From contig OX597820.1 in assembly GCA_951406725.2 (NCBI GenBank), positions 102,176,001-102,240,000 of the forward strand: DNA of 64,000 nt, given 5' to 3'. Each line of letters starts with the position of its first letter. Position 1 is the first letter of the stretch. The DNA is from Octopus vulgaris (taxonomy: Eukaryota). The notes beneath the pieces were generated by a model, which ran no database searches, had not been told where the DNA came from, and saw only the letters and a list, made by a program, of their open reading frames with translations. Of the stretch, positions 940-12,532 are shown in pieces. Position numbers and translations under genes: made by a program.

Positions 940-1200
940 CTGTTGTGTCTGGGGAAAGTCATTCTCTTTTAGTACCTTATTATTTAACACACTCTTGAAA
1001 AGAGTCAAGACTATTGAAAAGGTTGCAAGACGCAACGAAAAAATTTTAGAAAATAAAAATAAGAAATAAGTGGAAATTTTACCGTGAGTGTGTTAAATAA
1101 TAAGGCACTAAAAGAGAACGACTCTCCCCAGACACAACAGAATATGCTTCAACACATGAACTCATATAAAGAATCTTGCAAACCAAATCCCAAAACGAAA
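940..1200 (+). mobile_element. Penelope-like pseudo-LTR fragment with inverted partial copy
   Basis: 940-994 is the reverse complement of 1086-1140; hammerhead-like motif then AATAAA; (TA)n on both flanks; second copy at 11450-11590. Confidence 0.6.
1011..1049 (+). ncRNA. Minimal hammerhead-like ribozyme, U3-A8 core variant
   Basis: cta-TTGAAAA-g-GTTGC aagac GCAAC-GAAA-aaat-TT-tag: perfect 5-bp helix II, 1-bp helix III, 3-bp helix I. Confidence 0.55.
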
Positions 1201-1234
1201 TATATATATATATGATGCAGATGTGGCTGTGTAG

Positions 1235-1276
<42 letters not shown>

Positions 1277-1877
1277 GCTATGTTGTATATATATATATAT
1301 ATATATATATACTGATGATACACGCACACACACACACACAAACACACACACAAACAAACTCACATGACAGGCTTCTTTCAGTTTTTATCAGCCAAATCCA
1401 CTTCCAAGTGGTTGGTCAGCCTTGGAACTCTAGGGGAAGACACTTGCCCTAGATGTCCTGGAGTGGAACCAAACCTGGAACACAGTGATTGGAAAGCAAA
1501 CTTCTTATCCTCACAATGCCGCCTGCACAAACTATAACACCTAATACAAAACGAAAATGAATGAATCATTAAGTTTGTATTCAATGGAAAATGAAAGACA
1601 AAGCTGGAATGTTGTAAGAATTCTTCATCATCACTAACTAAAGTGTCATGATGGCTGTAATTGTTGAAACTGGTTGACTGATCAAATGACCACAAATTGA
1701 AACCTAACAGCAGGCATTGTGTTTGTGAATAGCTTAAGACAAATGCGACAAATTACTCTGCTGTGTCAATCTGTTTGTCTGCCTGCCTGCCTGCTTGCCT
1801 GCCTGCTTGCCTGCCTGTATGTCTGCCTGCCTGCTTGTCCGCCTGATGGTCTGACAGATTGAGTATCTGCATGTCTC

Positions 1878-2300
1878 ACTCTTACTCTATTTTACTCTTT
1901 TACTTGTTTCAGTCATTTGACTGTGGCCATGCTGGAGCACCGCCTTTAGTCGAGCAACTCGACCCCAGGACTTATTCATTGTAAGCCTAGTACTTATACT
2001 ATCGGGCTCTTTTTACCGAACCGCTAAGTTACAGGGACGTAAACACATCAGCATCGGTTGTCAAGCGATGTTGGGGGGATAAACATAGACACGTAAATAT
2101 ATACACACACATACATATATATATATACATATATACGACGGGCTTCTTTCAGTTTCCGTCTACCAAATCCACTCACAAGGCTTTGGTCGGCCCGAGGCTA
2201 TAGTAGAGGGCACTTGCCCAAGGTGCCAAGCAGTGGGACTGAACCCGGAACCATGTGGTTGGTAAGCAAGCAGCTTACCACACAGCCACTCCTACGCCTA
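1878..2300 (-). mobile_element. SINE family A, full length
   Basis: Minus strand has A-box-like TGGCTGTGTGG, B-box-like GGTTCAGTCC, internal (TA)/(TG) tract and (AAGAGTA)n-type tail. Confidence 0.9.
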
Positions 2301-2932
2301 AGCACATTTATTTTAATAAGTAACTGATAAGTTAAAAGGAAGAAAAGAACACTTCAGTATAGGGTACATGCTGATCTAGCTAAAACAAAACTCATCACCA
2401 CCACTACCACCACCACCACCACCACCACCACCACCACCACCACCACCATTTTCATTGCTACTGCTATCATCATCTTCACCACCACCACTTGATTACTGAT
2501 GTCACTGTCACCTTCATCTTTGTTGTTATTGCTGTCATCATCATCATCATCATCATAGAGATTTTTGTGGTTCTTATGGTCATCATCGTTCACTGTTATC
2601 CTTTTCATTGCCACTGCCATTGTCATCATTGTCATCATCGCTGCTATGACTGTTGTCATTGTTATCTTCCTCATTATCACTATCATTGGTTTATGTCCAC
2701 TTTCCATGCTGGTATGCATTAGAAAGGTTGCCCCTTGTGGGCAATAAAGAAATAAGATAGGTTGTCACAGTTTGAATCAACACATATTCATGAATATTGC
2801 TCATCTAGACAAGGAGGACTGTATCTAGCTTGTGAGTCTCATTTTTGATTTGGTTTCTTGCTCCACGCTCTTTCAAGTATCAGCACTTTGCTGAGTGAAC
2901 TGGGTGCTTTTCTTCATATCATCACTAGGAAG

Positions 2933-3365
2933 CAGTGCTGGATAAATAGTTAAGCAAAATAAGCATGTGTTTAGGGCATCAAGGGAAGCGAGGGGAGGGG
3001 GATCACAGAAATGGTAAATAGTTTTCAGCACAAAAGAAATCACTTTAAACTTGCTAGAATAATATTTGGGGGTACCTTATCTCAATTAAGTATAGAAGCA
3101 GATGTGTTACATATGACTAATTTTGAGGATATGATCAAAAACTTTGCAATTAAAAATGTAGGAGAAAACTTTTCAAATATAAATAAAGTGGGAGTAAAAA
3201 AAATATATAAACATTATTTTCTGTCTTACTATTACTTTTGTTTTATTTTGAAAAATAAAATTTTATTTTATAGTTTATAATTGTTTTTATTTAGAAGTCC
3301 ATATATATGGGGGCACCATAATCTTTTAAGTGCTTAGAGCCTCTATAGGTCTTAATCTGTCTTTA
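2933..3365 (+). mobile_element. hAT internal-deletion derivative retaining the transposase C-terminus
   Basis: Degenerate TIRs cagtgctggataaa / ttaatctgtcttta; peptide LSQLSIEADVLHMTNFEDMIKNFA resembles the hAT C-terminal dimerisation region. Confidence 0.55.
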
Positions 3366-3739
3366 CAAGAGAGGTATCATGTTCTTTACAAGACTAAAGA
3401 TTTCCTTTTTTTTCACACTCTGTATGGTGTACTGGGTACGTTTTCTCATGGCATTGGTACTATAGAGGTAGCCATGTTCATGACATGATTAAAGGAACCT
3501 CATAACTGAATATCTGCTTGCTCAAAGGCATCTTTATAGACTGAGAGACACAAAGGATAAAATAGCTATAAGCATGAATGATATTATTAGGTCACAAACG
3601 TGACAGACAACTGAACAATAACTGAACAACTGTACAAGTAATTACAACTACAAAATATAAATAGTCTAATTTTCAAGACTATTGCCTGTGTGATAACATG
3701 GAAAGAGATAATTTGATGAAAAATTGTAAAAGGAGATAA

Positions 3740-4450
3740 TGGTCTCAGATTCTGGCACAAGGCCAGCAACTTTGGGAAAAGGGGTAAGTAGATTATATGG
3801 ACCCCAGTGATCAACTGGTACTTATTTTATCGACCCTGAAAGGATGAAAAGCAAAGTCAACCTTGGCAGAATTTGAACTCAGATTGTAAAGATGGATTTA
3901 ACGCTGCAAAGCTTCTTTGCCTGGTGTGCTAAAAATTCCACCAGCTTGCTGCCTTACTGTAAAAAGAAATAATCTTTTCTACTATAGGCACAAGGCCTGA
4001 AATTTGGGAAAAGTAGGTAAGTTGGTTACATCGATGCCAGTACTCAACTGGTACTTAATTTATCGACCCTGAAAGGATGAAAGACAAAGGTGACCTTGGT
4101 GGAATTTGAACCCAGAATGTAAAGACAAATAAAATATTAAGCATTTCACCCAGTGTGCTAATGATTCTGCCAGCTTGCTGCCTTACTGTAAAAAGAAATA
4201 ATGAAAATCTTGAATGGTAGTAACAGTTCTTTCTAATTATGGTACAAGGCTAGTAATTCTGAGGAGATAGGGAAATCGATGGCATCAACAATCTCTCCCC
4301 AATGCTCACCTGGTATTTAATTTATTGACCCCAAAAGGATGAAAGGTAAAGTTGACTTTAATGACATTTAAATGCAAGAATGTAAAGAGCTGGAAGAAAT
4401 GTCACTGACCATTTTGTCTGGTGAGGGAATGATTCTGCCAGTTCACTGCA
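3740..4450 (-). mobile_element. Three head-to-tail SINE family B copies
   Basis: Repeated core actggtactta..atcgaccc.gaaaggatgaaaggcaaagtcgacc..gaatttgaactcag (B box GAGTTCAAAT on minus). Confidence 0.85.
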
Positions 4451-4486
4451 ACAACAATAACAGCAACAACAACAACAACAACAACA

Positions 4487-4835
4487 CCATCATCATCGTT
4501 TAAAGTCCGCTTTCCATGCTAGCATGGGTTGAACAATTTGACTGAGGTCTGGCGAACCAAATGGCTGCACCAGACTCCAATCTGATCTGGCAGGTTTCTA
4601 CAGCTGGATGCGCCTCCTAAAGCCAACCACTCCGAGAGTGTAGTGAGTGCTTTTACATGCCACCAGCACGAGGACCAGTCAGGCAGTACTGGCAACAGCC
4701 ACGCTTGAATGTTTTTCATGTACCATCAGCACAAGTGCCAGTAAGGCGACGCAGGTAACGATCACGCTCGAATGGTGTTTTTTACTTGCCACCGGCATGG
4801 AGGCCATCTTGTTGCTCTGGCAACGATCATGCTCG
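4487..4835 (-). mobile_element. Family C: RTE-LINE 3' UTR/tail
   Basis: (CAT)n-cgtttaa.gtccgctttccatgctagcatggg...ctggatgc.cctcctaa.gccaacc; internal motif shared with the RTE ORF 3' UTR at 55840-56010. Confidence 0.8.
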
Positions 4836-4844
4836 TAACAACAA

Positions 4845-5062
4845 CAATCCTTTCTACTATTAGCTCAAGGCCTCAAGTTTTTGGGAAGCGGTCTAGTCGA
4901 TTACATGAACATCACTGTTTGGCTGGTAGTTATTTTTTTCAACTCTGAAAGGATGAAAGGCAAAGTTCATCTTGGCAGAATTTGAACTCAGAACAAAAAG
5001 ACAGATGGAATACTGCTATGCATATTGTCTGGTATAATAACAATTCTGTCAATTAGCCACCT
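4845..5062 (-). mobile_element. SINE family B
   Basis: Family B core and tail. Confidence 0.8.
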
Positions 5063-5088
5063 AAGTAATAATAATAATAATAATAATA

Positions 5089-5430
5089 AGACCACTCAGA
5101 GAGCACAAACTTCCACCAAGGCAACACCAGCATCCTCTCAACGATTAGCCAGCGGTGATTTGTAAAATGAGAATATCTGAAATAAACTCGACTACTCTCA
5201 CAAACGAGAATACTTAAAATGGACTCGGCTGCTCTAAAAAATTAAGTAAAAAAACAGGAAAAATAATCCAGAATCCTTGTCCAGTGCCAAATCGATCCCA
5301 AAATCTAATCAGTTCATGCCAGTCATAAGGCCAAACATCCCTGAAAGTTTCATCCGAATCCATCCAGTGGTCCACAGACAAACAAATATGACTGTAAACA
5401 ATACCTCTCCTTTCACTAAAGCGGAAGTAA
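5089..5430 (-). mobile_element. Non-autonomous Helentron-type element (HINE/DINE-1-like)
   Basis: Minus strand starts attacttccgc...ggagaggtattgtt, ends ggtggaagtttgtgctctctgagtggtctt (subterminal IR plus 3' hairpin); embedded in (AAT)n; truncated sibling at 6660-6855. Confidence 0.6.
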
Positions 5431-6164
5431 TAATAATAATAACAATAATAATAATAATAATAATGATAATAATAATAATAATAATAATTCTTTCTACTAT
5501 AGGCACAAGATCTGAAATTTAGGGGGAAGGGGCTAGTTAATTACTTCAACCCCAGTGCATAACTGGTACTGGTACTTATTTTATCAACCCCAAAAGGATG
5601 AAAGGCAAAGTCAACCTCAAAAATTTTATAGATTTGCAGGGGTCGTATGGATCCTAGTTGGGAACTACTGGATGAGATGGTTATTGTTGTTCTATGTAAC
5701 ACAACCCCTGAGTTAAATTCAACCTTATACTACTGTTGATTTAGCTTTTCACTTCCCTTTGGCATCAATCATCGGTGTGTTGGCAGACTTGGCACCAATA
5801 ACATACAAGTGTAAGCCTGAGACCATATACTCTCTTCTAAGCATGAAAAATGTCTTTTACTAAAGTAATCAATCACTCAATCACTCCATCACTACATCAA
5901 TAAATACGATAAGAAGACATACAAAAAAAAAAAAAATTCTTAGAAATAGCCACTAGTAAGAAATTGGTTTCATTTTCCATTAATGGGAGAATTAAAGATA
6001 ATAAAGTTACTACATCAAAGACCTGATAACATCAATACACCATATATCTTCATTCTGAAGAGGAAGGAAAGGGAAGTAAGTAAAATCTTCTCACTCTTGA
6101 GATTTACTCTTTTCAATCAATGATCTGTTATTACATCTGTTTCGAGGATAGAATACCAATCAAA

Positions 6165-6339
6165 ATGTTTAGCGTTATCATGTCTACCATTAGGTCCTGA
6201 GTTCGAATTCCACCAAGACTTATTTTGCCTTTCATCCTTTTGGCATTGATTAAACAGGTATCAGTCAAGCACTGGGGTCAACAAAATTGACTAGGCCTCT
6301 CACCCAACATTTCAGGCTTCATGCCTATAATAGAAAAGC

Positions 6340-6395
<56 letters not shown>
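6165..6395 (+). mobile_element. SINE family B variant with (ATT)n tail
   Basis: gagttcgaattccaccaag...ttgcctttcatccttt; tail atagaaaagcttattatt. Confidence 0.75.
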
Positions 6396-6396
6396 T

Positions 6397-6590
6397 AAGA
6401 TGTCACACAGTATATAATATCATGATGTTGTTGATTGAAGATATTGTGTGTACTGGGGGTTGGTACTGTCTATCAAGTGCCGTTCCGAGTAATGCTGATT
6501 TTTGCAATACACCGAGATTGCAGAGTATTTCTAAAGTTTTCAGATGTTTTTTCAGGCTGGGTGGTATTGAACCCAATGCTCTGATTATTG
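6397..6590 (-). pseudogene. R4/Dong-clade non-LTR retrotransposon, extreme 3' fragment in a (TAA)n tract
   Basis: Peptide ALGSIPPSLKKHLKTLEILCNLGVLQKSALLGTA fits the RLE C-terminus (GALG...QK.ALLGTA); TAA repeats on both sides, the known Dong target. Confidence 0.7.
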
Positions 6591-6596
6591 TTGTTG

Positions 6597-6654
<58 letters not shown>

Positions 6655-6659
6655 CAACA

Positions 6660-6855
6660 GGAGCACCCAGAAAGTGCAAACCTCTGCTAAGGCAGCACCA
6701 ACTTCCTATCAAGGATTAGCCAGAGGTGATTTGTAAAATGAGAATATCTGAAATAAACTTGAGTGCTCTCATAAACAAGAAAACTAAAATTAAGTAAAAA
6801 GAAAGGTAAAATAATCCAGAATCCTTGTCCAGTACTGAAACGATCCCCAAATCAC
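6660..6855 (-). mobile_element. Truncated HINE-like element, sibling of 5089-5430
   Basis: Shares gattagccag.ggtgatttgtaaaatgagaatatctgaaataaac...aataatccagaatccttgtccagt. Confidence 0.65.
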
Positions 6856-7032
6856 CTTTAACATTGATATTGTTCACTTTTGGTGGCATCAGTAGCAAAA
6901 TACACACACACACACACACATACACATATACACACACACACTTCATGAATCATACAGACTCATAGGGCTGGTTTCCTGGTTTATATATATATGTGTGTGT
7001 GTGTATTTTGCTACTGATGCTACCAAAAGTGA

Positions 7033-7440
7033 ACGCAGGAGTGGCTGTGTGGTAAGTAGCTTGTTTACCAACCACATGGTTCCGGGTTCAGTCCCACTGC
7101 ATGGCACCTTGGGCAAGTGTCTTCTACTATAGCCTCGGGCCGACCAAAGCCTTGTGAGTGGATTTGGTTGACGGAAACTGAAAGAAGCCCGTCGCATATA
7201 TGTATATATGTATATGTGTGCATGTGTGTTTGTGTGTCTGTGTTTGTCCCTCTAGCATTGCTTGACAACCGATGCTGGTGTGTTTATGTCCCCGTCACTT
7301 AGCGGTTCAGCAAAAGAGATCGATTGAATAAGTACTGGGCTTACAAAGAAAAAGTCCCGGGGTCAAGTTGCTTGACTAAAGGCGGTGCTCCAGCATGGCC
7401 GCAGTCAAATGACTGAAACAAGTAAAAGAGTAAAGAGTAA
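7033..7440 (+). mobile_element. SINE family A, full length, young
   Basis: cgcaggagtggctgtgtggtaag...ggttcagtccc...ccttgggcaagt...gaaacaagtaaaagagtaaagagtaa. Confidence 0.92.
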
Positions 7441-8159
7441 TATCAATGTTAAAGGTATGAAATCATAAGGATCCTTTGGACGTTGACTGATGAGGAATTT
7501 GCTATGAATTTTCAGTTGTTATGTAGATTCTCTGCAGCTGGATGTCCTTCCTGTCACCAACCTTCATCTGTTTCTAACCAACGCCTAATCCCCAAACCAA
7601 ATGATTGAGAAGCAAGTTTCTCAACCACACTGCCACATGCACGCACACACACACACATTCATAAATTTTCAACATTATCTGAATAATTGAATATGACTCC
7701 CAGAAGCCTACAATTTAAGAGCAGCTAATAACTAAATTACCATCTGACCCCATTGGTAGCCATAAGCATTTCAAGACTAATCTAAATAGTCTTACACTTA
7801 ATGTTCATAAATATTTCTCTCTTTTCACTTCACATATATTCTTTCATTAAAACCTTGTCATATCTCTCAATTCCATTGTCTGTTGTATGTATAGGTTAAT
7901 TGAAGGACTTTTAATGACACATGCTTAGTCTGACTGTTTAACCACTGGTCGGTCGTGATATATAAGGTTAGCTGAGTTAGAGGTTAAAATAGCTGTCTAA
8001 GGGATAGAAGTATCCATTATACTACTGGTATATTGCCTATGTTTAACCATGGGCATACATATGCAAGCAAATTATGCTCATAAATTATACGTAAAAACAA
8101 GGAGAAACATGAGTTTATCAAGAATCAAAATTTAAAGAAAACAGAAAATGGAGAAATAT

Positions 8160-8564
8160 TACTCTTTACTCTTTTACTTGTTTCAGTCATTTGACTGCGG
8201 CCATGCTGGAGCACCGCCTTTAGTCGAGCAAATCAACCCCGGGACTTATTCTTTGTAAGCCCAGTACTTATTCTATCGGTCTCTTTTGCCGAACCGCTAA
8301 GTGATGGGGACGTAAACACACCAGCATCGGTTGTCAAGCAATGCTAGAGGGACAAACACAGACACACAAACATATACACACACATATATATACATATATA
8401 CATATATAAGACAGGCTTCTTTCAGTTTCCGTCTACCAAATCCACTCACAAGGCTTTGGTCGGTCCGAGGCTATAGCAGAAGACACTTGCCCAAGATGCC
8501 ACACAGTGGGACTGAACCCGGAACCATGTGGCTGGTTAGCAAGCTATTTACCACATAGCCACTC
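8160..8564 (-). mobile_element. SINE family A, full length
   Basis: Near-identical reverse complement of 7033-7440. Confidence 0.92.
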
Positions 8565-8730
8565 ATGAACAATGATTGACTTATATCAATTATTATTTAT
8601 ATATTCAAATACTATTTTAGGTTTAATCATTTACTTAACATCCCAAAGAGATACACAAGGAAAATTGTATGAATACAGCCATATTCAACTTTTCTTTTTT
8701 ATTCTCTAGGTTTTTCTTTTATTTAGTCTT

Positions 8731-8846
8731 CAATCTGATGAAGCTCCATGTTCTAGATCAGTTTTATTACCAACTATCATAAATATATGTTTTAGCATAT
8801 CAATGGCAATACCATACTAGATTTGAAGCAGAAACAGCTGTTAGAC
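8731..8846 (+). ncRNA. Hammerhead-like motif with long helix II, probable Penelope LTR relic
   Basis: CTGATGA (8735) ... GAAA-CAGCTG-TT (8831-8842) with palindromic loop; helix II arms gctcca..tctag / ctaga..tgaagc; AATAAA downstream; helix I weak. Confidence 0.45.
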
Positions 8847-9082
8847 GGGATGTAGTCTGTTTGCATTGAATTAATAAATAATAATTGGTGCAAATTAATT
8901 GTTGTTCATCAATATTTCTCCATTTATTTCTCCATGCTACACTGATGATGATAATGAGGATTTATGTGTGTGAGTGTCTGTATATATACATGTGTGTGTG
9001 TGTGTCAGTATATATTTATATATATATATGGATGATATTTTTATACATGAATGTGTGTATGTATCTATCTATCTATATATGT

Positions 9083-9116
<34 letters not shown>

Positions 9117-9202
9117 GTAGGTCCCGGGTTGATTCGGGGTTAACCACAGTAAGTAAGGTACTCAATACATAGCAGAGTAAAATTAATTTATTATATAGAA
9201 GG

Positions 9203-9253
9203 AGCTTCTACAGGACTAGTACTGTTTCATTCAAGAGAAATCTTCAGGAAGCT
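9203..9253 (-). ncRNA. Type I hammerhead ribozyme, canonical core
   Basis: AGCTTC-CTGAAGA-tttc tctt gaat-GAAA-CAG tactagtc CTG-TA-GAAGCT: 6-bp helix I, full CUGANGA/GAAA core, helix III with palindromic ACTAGT in the loop, GUA cleavage triplet. Confidence 0.8.
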
Positions 9254-9662
9254 ATTTAACAAGAATTGTATTAGCATTTATACATTTAGGCAGGTTTAAA
9301 GGAGTGGTGGTGGGGGACTTTTTGGGGGGTAGGCATAGCGCAAAATATCATACTTGGGGAGTGGTCAAGGAGTCAGTGGTAAGTTAGATGAAAGAATAGA
9401 TAAATAAAAAAATAAATAAAAAAATAAAAAATAAAAAATAAAAAATAAAAAAATAAAAAAATAAAAAAATAAAATAAAAAAATAAAAAAATAAAAAATAT
9501 AAAAAATATATATAAAAAAATATATATATAAAATATATATATAAAAAAATATATATATAAAAAAAGGGGGATAGAGTTATAGGTAAATAAGGAGATTCTC
9601 ACTTATACCTATACACACATGTATACGTATCTACACACACATACATACATACACATATATAT

Positions 9663-9698
<36 letters not shown>

Positions 9699-9899
9699 AC
9701 CTACACATACACACATACATACATACAAATATACATATACATATATATATATACAATCCAATACAGGCCCATTCCCTAATTTTAATTTTAATTAAAATAA
9801 TAAGATAATAAAATTAAAATTAGGGAATGGGCCTGTATTGGATTGTATATATATATATGTATATGTATATTTGTATGTATGTATGTGTGTATGTGTAGG

Positions 9900-9940
<41 letters not shown>

Positions 9941-10298
9941 ATATATATGTGTATGTATGTATGTGTGTGTAGATACGTATACATGTGTGTATAGGTATAA
10001 GTGAGAATCTCCTTATTTACCTATAACTCTATCCCCCCTTTTTTTATATATATATTTTTATATATATATTTTATATATATATTTTTATATATATTTTTAT
10101 ATTTTTATTTTTATTTTTTTATTTTATTTTTTTATTTTTATTTTTTTTTTTTTTTTATTTTATTTTTATTTTTATTTTTTTATTTATCTATTCTTTCATC
10201 TAACACCACTGACTCCTGACCACTCCCAAGTATGATTTGACCTCAAAAGTCCCACACACTCCTTTAAACCTGCCTAAATGTATAAATTCTTGTTAAAT

Positions 10299-10347
10299 AG
10301 CTTCCTGAAGATTTCTCTTGAATGAAACAGTACTAGTCCTGTAAACT
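10299..10347 (+). ncRNA. Second hammerhead copy in the right arm, helix I damaged
   Basis: Same core as 9203-9253 but 3' strand reads gtaaact instead of gtagaagct. Confidence 0.55.
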
Positions 10348-10362
10348 CCTTCTATATAATAA

Positions 10363-10397
<35 letters not shown>

Positions 10398-10454
10398 CAT
10401 ATATATATATACATATATATGTATACATATATATGTATATATTTTATGTTATGT

Positions 10455-10732
10455 ATCTTTTTTTATCTTTTATCTTTAACTTGTTTCAGTCATTGGGCTG
10501 CAGCCATGCTGGAGCATCTCCTGGAAGGGTTTTAGCCAAGCAAATCAATTCTAGTACGTAATTATTTTTTTAAGCCTGGCACTTATACTATTACTCTCTT
10601 ATAGTAAACTGTTAAGTTACGGGGATGTAAGCAAGCCAACGCTGGCCATGAAGTGGTGGTAGAAGATAAACACAAGCACAAAGGCACTTATACACACACA
10701 CACACACACACATACATGTATATGTGTCTCTT

Positions 10733-10773
<41 letters not shown>

Positions 10774-10935
10774 GCCCTTGTAACTTAGCAGTTCAGCAAA
10801 AGAAACCAACAGAATAAGTAGCAGGCTTTAAGAAAATAATATCTACTGGGGTTGGTACATTCAACTAAAAATTCTTCAAGGTAGTGCCCCAGCATGGCCA
10901 CAGTCTAATGACTGGAACAAGTAAAAGATAAAAGA
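10455..10935. mobile_element. Two inverted SINE A 3' halves around a microsatellite
   Basis: 10455-10720 minus and 10775-10935 plus match the family A 3' half. Confidence 0.75.
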
Positions 10936-11449
10936 TATATTCACAAAGGTACATTATTGAGTGTGTCTCCTTTTCTAAAAGATTATGGTCAGAAATTTAG
11001 TTGCTATTTTTGCTTGTCAACTAACCATATAAACCTCACCACTACCACTACCATTATCACTACCACTAACATTGTCTACTATCTTAGTGACTGCTTTTGC
11101 TGCCAAGAATTGGCAGTGTATACATCACAAAATCTAACTTTGTAAATCAATTCTGAACCAATAGGAAAATCTGTCTGGTGTTAATGCTCCATAAGTACCA
11201 TTTCTCCAGGTCAGGTCTGTGTCATGCAGTAAACAAACTGCAAGGTGAATCATTTGACTTTCCTTTGCACTGCTAATGTTTTTTCAGATGTCAGGTCACA
11301 CCATTTTTTTCACCTTTATATAATGAAAACAAGTCATTCGCATACACCATTCTCCTTGATGAGAATTGTAGAACATTCAATACATTGTGGAAGCAATGTA
11401 CCTTTGATTTGCTTATTTTTATCCTTTAACTTTCCGTTTTTGGATTTAG

Positions 11450-11590
11450 GCAAGACTATTGAAAAGGTTGCAAGACGCAACGAAAATTTTAGGAAAATAA
11501 AAATAAGAAATAAGTGGAAATTTTAGTGGTGAGTGTGTTACATTATAAGGCACGAAAAGAAAATGACTCTCCCCAGACATAACAGAATAT
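11450..11590 (+). mobile_element. Second copy of the U3-A8 hammerhead-bearing Penelope-like fragment
   Basis: caagactattgaaaaggttgcaagacgcaacgaaaa identical to 1006-1041. Confidence 0.6.
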
Positions 11591-11593
11591 CCT

Positions 11594-12030
11594 TTAACTC
11601 TTTCATAACTACATCTTTGACAGAATAGACTGGTCTTGTTTTAATTAATTTTGAAAATAATGAAGAATTTAGTGAAATGATTTTGCTATTATTAAGTTGG
11701 TGTTTAGAACATAAATTAACATGAAATTTTGATGAAAGGTTTTAAATCAGAACACTTCAAAGCAGGATGTTTGTGCCATAAAACTAAAAGTGATCTTAGG
11801 CAGGTTGATGTTAACCTTTTCATTACCATAATTCAGTTGAAATACACTGCCTTTGTTTCAATAAATTATTAAAATAATGATGAATTTATTCAAAAAATGT
11901 TGTCATTATTAAGCTGGTGTTTCAAACCTAAAATTAAAATGAAATTTTGATGTAAGATTTTAATTCAGATCACTTTAATTTGAGAACTTTATATCATAGA
12001 ACTAGAGGTAGGTTTGAATTGAAAGGGTTA
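11594..12030 (+). mobile_element. Tandem pair of ~215-bp TTAA-ended MITEs (piggyBac-like)
   Basis: Units begin ttaactcttt / ttaacctttt and the last ends aaagggttaa; related copies at ~14065-14275 and ~61805-62010. Confidence 0.55.
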
Positions 12031-12093
12031 AAACTATACCACTTCTTTTGTACTACCCTCCACTAAAAAAAAAACCTAAAATCAAAAACCCTT

Positions 12094-12532
12094 TTAATCC
12101 TCTAGAGTTCACATTATTGTGTCAAAATTAATACTTTGTTTACTCACATTTTATGGAGATGTACTTGCATAGCAAGTGACCTGATCTGAGATCATGTGCT
12201 GGAACGAAAACAATTGCAGCATGGAAGGTGTTTATAAGTCATTTAAGAAACGCACAAAAACCGATAAGATTCACTTCAACATTTAAATTTAATCTGTAAA
12301 AATATTTTTGTCACCTTGAGACCGCGACCTGTTCACTGACAAAATTCCGTGCTGCATCTTGTTTTGAATTAATCATGCATTGTCTTGTAGCTATAAGATT
12401 TTGATGAGGTAAACTGTTAATTTTTAGAATGATATTGTAGGGATGGTGTGAGAAGCCAGATCTGATAGTTTGAACATAAAACAGACAGAATACTTTGGCT
12501 GGGTATGGCCGGTTTAAATACTAAAGAGTGAA
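12094..12532 (+). mobile_element. TTAA-type MITE interrupted by a Penelope-like fragment (12152-12357)
   Basis: Degenerate ends ttaatcctctag / ctaaagagtgaa; compositionally distinct insert carrying a hammerhead relic. Confidence 0.45.
12295..12341 (-). ncRNA. Minimal hammerhead relic, G3-C8 core variant
   Basis: tgtca-GTGAACA-g-GTCGC ggtctcaag GTGAC-aAAA-ATAT-TT-ttaca; palindromic ATAT tetraloop; G12 reads A, compatible with CpG decay. Confidence 0.5.

Follow-up and report, generated by a model that had tools for sequence, protein, structure and literature searches.

We analysed a 64,000-nt stretch of repeat-rich animal DNA from Octopus vulgaris (contig OX597820.1, positions 102,176,001 to 102,240,000; hereafter the window), in which a preliminary description had placed hammerhead ribozyme motifs with C-G, U-A and G-C versions of the core 3-8 pair. 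Genome-wide counts given below cover the 2.8-Gb assembly. Our results make it probable that the motifs are hammerheads, that each belongs to the terminal repeat of one of three Penelope-like element (PLE) families, and that the U3-A8 and G3-C8 forms are paired variants of a conserved fold, likely self-cleaving at a slow rate. The apparent novelty lies in the natural G3-C8 family, as minimal PLE hammerheads and the U3-A8 variant were already known.

Hammerhead motifs and the elements that carry them

The families are named here after their 3-8 pair. The window contains the following features.

940..996, minus strand: arm of the first U-A insertion, inverted and without a tail (right end approximate)
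1001..1201, plus strand: forward arm of a U-A PLE terminal repeat, lying between the common 5′ boundary and the fixed 3′ tail end
1011..1049, plus strand: minimal hammerhead of type I with a U3-A8 core (1014-1020), a bulged G, and helices I and II of 3 and 5 bp
9117..9776, minus strand: C-G PLE 3′ end, tail-bearing arm, continuing a few bases beyond 9776
9203..9253, minus strand: type I hammerhead, C3-G8 core 9247-9241, GUA triplet
9823..10364, plus strand: inverted arm of the C-G insertion, second core at 10305
11432..11588, plus strand: second U-A insertion, a short inverted tail piece and a forward arm
11456..11492, plus strand: minimal hammerhead, U3-A8 core 11459-11465, family-typical sequence
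12151..12359, minus strand: terminal repeat of a G-C PLE of the older subfamily, with its 5′ boundary at 12359 and its tail end at 12151
12293..12343, minus strand: minimal hammerhead, G3-C8 core 12336-12330, decayed

The UUGAAAA cores at 1014 and 11459 (plus strand) and the GUGAACA core at 12336 (minus strand) were located exactly where they had been reported. The CUGAAGA core, previously placed at 9203, lies on the minus strand at 9247-9241, position 9203 being the final base of its helix I. Helix II, the GAAA segment and helix I were found as described. The U-A and G-C motifs share a common design, namely a short helix I, the core, a single unpaired G between A9 and G10.1 (absent from the preliminary description), a 5-bp helix II with G10.1-C11.1 as its closing pair, GAAA, a palindrome replacing helix III, and U17. 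The “tiny helix III” noted earlier describes these two motifs, with palindromes AAUU (U-A) and AAUAUU (G-C), and not the C-G motif, where helix III comprises 4 bp and an 8-nt loop, the triplet is GUA and U·U closes helix II. Helix I is 7 bp and helix II 5 bp in the G-C motif; helices I, II and III of the C-G motif are 6, 3 and 4 bp, respectively. All three helices of a type I hammerhead were thus identified, helix III of the U-A and G-C motifs being possible in a dimer alone, and the C-G motif could fold as a monomer. The hallmarks of minimal PLE hammerheads (a bulge after A9, G10.1-C11.1 and palindromic 15.2-16.2) were present in the U-A and G-C motifs and absent from the C-G motif.

The window copies differ in their state of preservation. 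The copy at 1011..1049 has two additional A within helix III. The U-A and G-C copies carry a UUU triplet, as had been cautioned. In the copy at 12293..12343, we observed G12A (at 12309), one helix II wobble and helix I mismatches; G12A deprives it of a complete hammerhead core, and it is probably inert. The C-G hammerhead sequence was the same in 30/30 fetched loci. Compared to the other C-G arm, the arm at 9823-10364 has many small deletions, two of them inside helix I. Long-read errors can arise on fold-back sequences, and these deletions are possibly of that origin.

In all three repeats, the 3′ end is fixed, a tail of ~50 nt is optional, inverted arms are 5′-truncated and targets are AT-rich, features given as PLE hallmarks in PMC8557442. 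Repeats of 8-15 nt border 7/8 tested insertions, although three of those seven are plain (AT)n; the U-A insertion at 11432..11588 is flanked by an 11-nt direct repeat (11421-11431 and 11589-11599). Pseudo-long terminal repeats (pLTRs), partial tandems, inverted 5′-truncated arms and the optional tail were all seen at L304, a full-length G-C copy, and at other loci. The proposal of three distinct retroelement families stood, each being linked to PLE-type frames, and the linked Penelope reverse transcriptase (RT)/GIY-YIG reading frame that had been suggested as a check was reached, as upstream RT and GIY-YIG-type coding sequence, from longer copies.

A long G-C copy from an unbiased genome sample led to a young G-C subfamily, which has at least 41 places with 100% identity across 171 nt (40 of 1,864 candidates scored) and copies 98.6-100% identical across the end of the frame. 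RT or endonuclease (EN) frames of at least 150 aa were found in 15/21 long young G-C loci. In L304, hammerheads at 4442 and 8703 lie on either side of an RT-EN frame, whose first ATG falls within the tail of the repeat; by analogy, the ATG at 1144 of the window would be the start of the U-A frame. The protein P0001 contains the YVDD motif of RT and a C-terminal VYQI..YIGET..R..EH, that is, RT followed by GIY-YIG in one frame, where the endonuclease was recognised by comparing motifs by eye with GIY-YIG matches of other PLEs. P0001 also shows the CX2-5CxxC linker and CCHH-like residues, by which, together with placement in a tree containing named references, the Neptune and Nematis clades are recognised; they exclude the Hydra clade as described. 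Pfam returned no match to P0001 or to the C-G frame piece, and a profile built from 40 relatives matched solved RTs weakly (best E=1e-4). The best named relative of the element's protein comes from an octopus. Three of 30 U-A loci reach far upstream, and L290 with L324 extend into RT/EN sequence.

In the C-G family, a low-complexity 3′ untranslated region (UTR) of 3.2 kb follows a different RT-thumb/endonuclease piece; this family belongs to a different PLE lineage, not closely related to U-A and G-C. From its motifs it may be provisionally labelled “Nematis-like”. A Pfam GIY-YIG genome search (30 loci) retrieved other PLE families; in these loci, the families studied here were matched only by L119, a partial G-C copy, and L117, a C-G piece, outside 3′ UTRs. 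The same loci (L091-L120) also revealed a further abundant PLE family of the GIY-YIG kind, in which open frames of 781 aa are numerous and the 3′ repeats are rich in CCAAT/TGACGT. We rejected a non-LTR (long terminal repeat) retrozyme, built of head-to-tail 170-400 nt units each with a hammerhead, for the window copies, which are solo or inverted; the 30 U-A loci included one tandem array (L011), with a broken core. The interval between the window hammerheads is occupied by a ~400-nt repeat resembling a short interspersed nuclear element, in many copies (1880-2300, 7030-7440, 8150-8565 and others), and by several shorter dispersed repeats.

Pairing states at positions 3 and 8

The U-A and G-C families are sisters (support 99/98 in a tree of 36 segments, retained by length from 43), with 46-55% protein identity. 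Between their motifs, four pairs have changed on both sides, namely 3-8, the third helix II pair and the second and third helix I pairs, and no shared pair is broken. The covariation at 3-8 proposed earlier is therefore real in a homologous context, between the sister families and among the relatives described below. It does not extend to the three window motifs taken together, because the C-G family, not being a close relative of U-A and G-C, adds no covariation.

The exact 22-mers of the motifs occur 5,534 (G-C), 2,382 (U-A) and 3,164 (C-G) times in the genome, with no match to the reversed-pattern controls. The scaffold shared by U-A and G-C, with positions 3, 7 and 8 left free, gave 10,185 matches (control 0). 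Among the 100 matches listed, from the start of contig 1, hand counting yielded 59 G-C, 32 U-A, 2 U·G, 7 mismatches and no C-G. U3-A8 was found in 49/54 U-A family matches. Of the older G-C copies, we also inspected 38 that were free of gaps and had been anchored outside the core, with 30/33 loci picked by likeness to the window copy: G3-C8 was kept in 36/38, G12 in 31/38 and the full core in 23/38, while six had A at position 12, as CpG decay predicts. The caution about a lost G12 consequently concerns the window G-C copy only, and not its family. Two C8 matches carry another loop II (C1:12071841-12071870 and C1:2348329-2348357; one is G3-C8 with C7, the other A3-C8), and it is possible that they represent further G3-C8 families.

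Between the older and young G-C subfamilies, none of the 42 structural positions differs, vs 17/167 other positions (p=0.019), five of these 17 being in loop II. Two of 19 raw differences (an end artefact and a private variant) were dropped from this count; with both kept, p=0.012. The young G-C motif folds into helices I and II with z about -3. Of the selected ribozyme function inferred in the preliminary description, selection on the fold is supported. Selection on cleavage does not follow, given the copies made from uncut RNA and the amplified U3-G8 subfamily discussed below.

Related elements from other hosts were searched in 64 loci from metagenomes, using a descriptor that left positions 3 and 8 free. 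All 11 sense matches, in 10 loci, were Watson-Crick (5 C-G, 5 U-A and 1 A-U), and L329 had the U-A core in both terminal repeats. Antisense matches numbered four (3 C-G, 1 C-A); the controls gave none for the reversed pattern, four for the complement (one sequence four times) and four in 20 shuffles. Some matches in the relatives have a weak helix I. The C-G core of L339 belongs to the same supported subclade as the U-A and G-C sisters. At the level of families, 13/13 states were Watson-Crick, in four versions, with p ~1e-5 when kinship is ignored, a figure that overstates the case. The A-U core is that of L366 (1701-1745, plus strand), a candidate natural A3-U8 hammerhead with a 4-bp helix II and a 3-bp helix I; it comes from a single metagenome contig, on which it lies within the 3′ UTR of another PLE related to these families.

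A census of 1 Mb, taken from 100 evenly spaced genome stretches with positions 3, 7 and 8 free, returned 27 matches, 25 of them Watson-Crick at 3-8 (0 for the reversed pattern; 2.2 per shuffle in 5 shuffles). The states were 14 C-G (7 from one tandem array), 9 U-A, 1 G-C, 1 A-U and 2 unpaired; the A-U match lies in a microsatellite and is probably due to chance. In the three main classes, 10/24 matches are not C-G. Six of the U-A matches belong to another family, whose helices are canonical and whose repeats are about 360 nt long. This U3-A8 family and a C3-G8 tandem array share a loop II core (L182, L214, L223, L229, L134); both are retrozyme-like, with no BLAST similarity between the two units. 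Another minimal C3-G8 family was seen in the same sample (L161, L185, L216, L221), one copy being G3-G8.

As had been anticipated, CUGANGA searches miss ~10,000 U-A/G-C scaffold copies. Rfam listed none of the tested motifs: it gave no match at the curated threshold in the five loci tested, none of its hammerhead families reached E<=10 for window 9130-9400, and none was among the matches listed for the window (150 of 286). Both kinds of search thus undercount hammerheads in such genomes.

Insertion ends and competing explanations

The 5′ ends of 30 U-A insertions were surveyed using a query entirely downstream of the cut site (+45). The 5′-most boundary was upstream of -5 in 5 insertions, from -5 to +3 in 12, and from +4 to +41 in 13. 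Such clustering of the boundaries suggests that transcription starts 13 nt upstream of the U-A core. The common 5′ boundary of the sister families coincides with a YA/GA-type, initiator-like site (L304:4400-4425; window 1001-1032), and the U-A loop II, at +28 to +32, matches a word like the downstream promoter element. We also considered a splice acceptor as the cause of the fixed boundary. The G-C boundary does have an acceptor-like stretch, but the U-A boundary is not pyrimidine-rich, and the short copies have no common upstream exon.

Several observations weigh against the interpretation of the motifs as self-cleaving hammerheads. None of the 30 U-A insertions begins 3 nt or less from the cut or past it; therefore, the inserted copies derive from uncut RNA. 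In a loop-tagged U-A subset of 85 copies, counted by hand, 38 were U·G, 33 U-A, 8 C-G and 6 other, so a U3-G8 wobble subfamily has been amplified. It bears a different loop II (e.g. C1:28058689 and C1:28428618). This subfamily offers a mutational path between the pairs, and it shows that strict 3-8 pairing is unnecessary for amplification. Moreover, helix I of the U-A family is just 3 bp, L304 carries a stop and two frameshifts and no intact master was seen among the copies, and there are few independent swap events. In earlier in vitro work, minimal PLE hammerheads showed poor cleavage, with low activity of dimers (PMC4209133), and cleavage proved dispensable for insertion in vitro in PAc, the Poseidon element of Anolis (PMC11167929).

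Some of these points would also be expected if the fold were kept as a protein binding or packaging site, or as an overlapping promoter, with negligible cleavage and a 3-8 pair that serves shape. The uncut templates, the wobble subfamily and the Anolis element's indifference to cleavage (PMC11167929) all agree with such a role, as do the position of the motif 13-23 nt downstream of the inferred start site and the spread of Naiad PLEs without canonical hammerheads (PMC8557442). Nevertheless, the catalytic positions G5, A6, A9, G12, A13, A14 and H17, which have no obvious pairing role, are the same in both G-C subfamilies, and the palindromic helix III recurs in relatives, though there the descriptor demanded it. 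We consider this explanation unlikely, if still worth serious attention. The motifs could also be neutral relics inherited with the terminal repeat, their pairing reflecting ancestry and the way motifs were picked. Free decay of the copies (the full core survives in 23/38 older G-C copies), the small number of independent events and the partial circularity of descriptor searches speak for this idea. It sits badly with the uniformly Watson-Crick family states, obtained although every search left positions 3 and 8 free, and with the sparing of structural positions between the G-C subfamilies, and we judge it very improbable.

We give almost no credence to the view that the two variants merely look like hammerheads by chance, in AT-rich DNA or in inverted-repeat elements akin to miniature inverted-repeat transposable elements (MITEs). 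The insertion at 940-1201 is MITE-like at first glance, and Rfam matches are lacking; however, controls were near zero, the inverted arms are truncated copies of the same repeat whose length varies by copy, and long copies join RT/EN frames, which already contradicts this view. A MITE or DNA-transposon reading of 940-1201 was rejected for the same variation in arm length and for the joining of its arms to PLE frames.

If the motifs are slowly cleaving hammerheads of PLEs, as we favour, an internal promoter would initiate transcription within the repeat, 13-23 nt upstream of the core. The full-length RNA would hold two motifs, and their palindromic helix III segments (AAUAUU, AAUU) could pair to form a dimer hammerhead. 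Cleavage would be weak or slow and probably assisted by the protein of the element, as reported for the Anolis PLE. Its effect may be to trim tandem transcripts or turn them into circles, or else to remove their caps and thereby restrict the amount of protein made. The template for insertion would be uncut RNA rather than a cleavage product: because the inserted copies keep the cut site, cleavage is not the template-making step. Most genomic copies, including the window G-C copy, would then be decaying passengers. More tentatively, and with slightly more doubt than confidence, we propose that one PLE clade uses all four Watson-Crick 3-8 versions plus U·G, and that G3-C8 is a working ribozyme on a currently mobile element whose copies number in the thousands. 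Hammerheads are nearly universal in PLEs, yet cleavage is dispensable in the one in vitro system. The young G3-C8 element, its U3-A8 sister and the wobble subfamily provide matched natural variants to assay; if the proposal is true, they form a natural allelic series for testing whether the cleavage rate matters to PLE transposition.

Comparison with known systems

Minimal PLE hammerheads and the U3-A8 variant were reported by Cervera and De la Pena 2014 (PMC4209133), the latter in Schistosoma Cercyon elements with about 1,300 matches. The U-A and G-C motifs resemble those hammerheads in being type I and located in pLTRs, with an extra nucleotide between A9 and G10.1, the G10.1-C11.1 pair, a short helix I, a palindromic helix III, U17 (several examples there), opposite-strand motif pairs and, in the U-A family, U3-A8. 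The available part of that paper contains no G3-C8, A3-U8 or U3-G8 family and no cephalopod. Unlike the elements described there, G3-C8 occurs here on a very young element and in thousands of copies. A natural compensated 3-8 pair, as found here, was described by Perreault et al. 2011 (PMC3088659), where U3-A8 is the sole variant named in the part available to us. Our literature searches for natural G3-C8 or A3-U8 gave engineered G3-C8 alone (PMC3884650, PMC11167929, PMC8495972), which does not establish the absence of natural forms from print.

The C-G motif has a stable helix III, like the type I PLE hammerheads with a long helix III from fungi, protists and Hydra (PMC4209133), and a Hydra entry in the supplement of that paper appears to share the U·U beside the core. 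In contrast to those, its element is from an animal and has a low-complexity 3′ UTR of 3.2 kb.

For PAc, Frangione et al. 2024 (PMC11167929) reported protein-assisted cleavage. The octopus elements and PAc have in common the pLTR hammerhead, the optional tail, AT-rich targets, a frame that starts in the terminal repeat, and uncut RNA as the main template. The PAc frame starts within the ribozyme, whereas here it starts ~160 nt after it. The natural PAc core is C3-G8, and its engineered C3G/G8C form partly restores cleavage; the G3-C8 pair, known in PAc as that partial rescue alone, is the natural state of the octopus G-C family.

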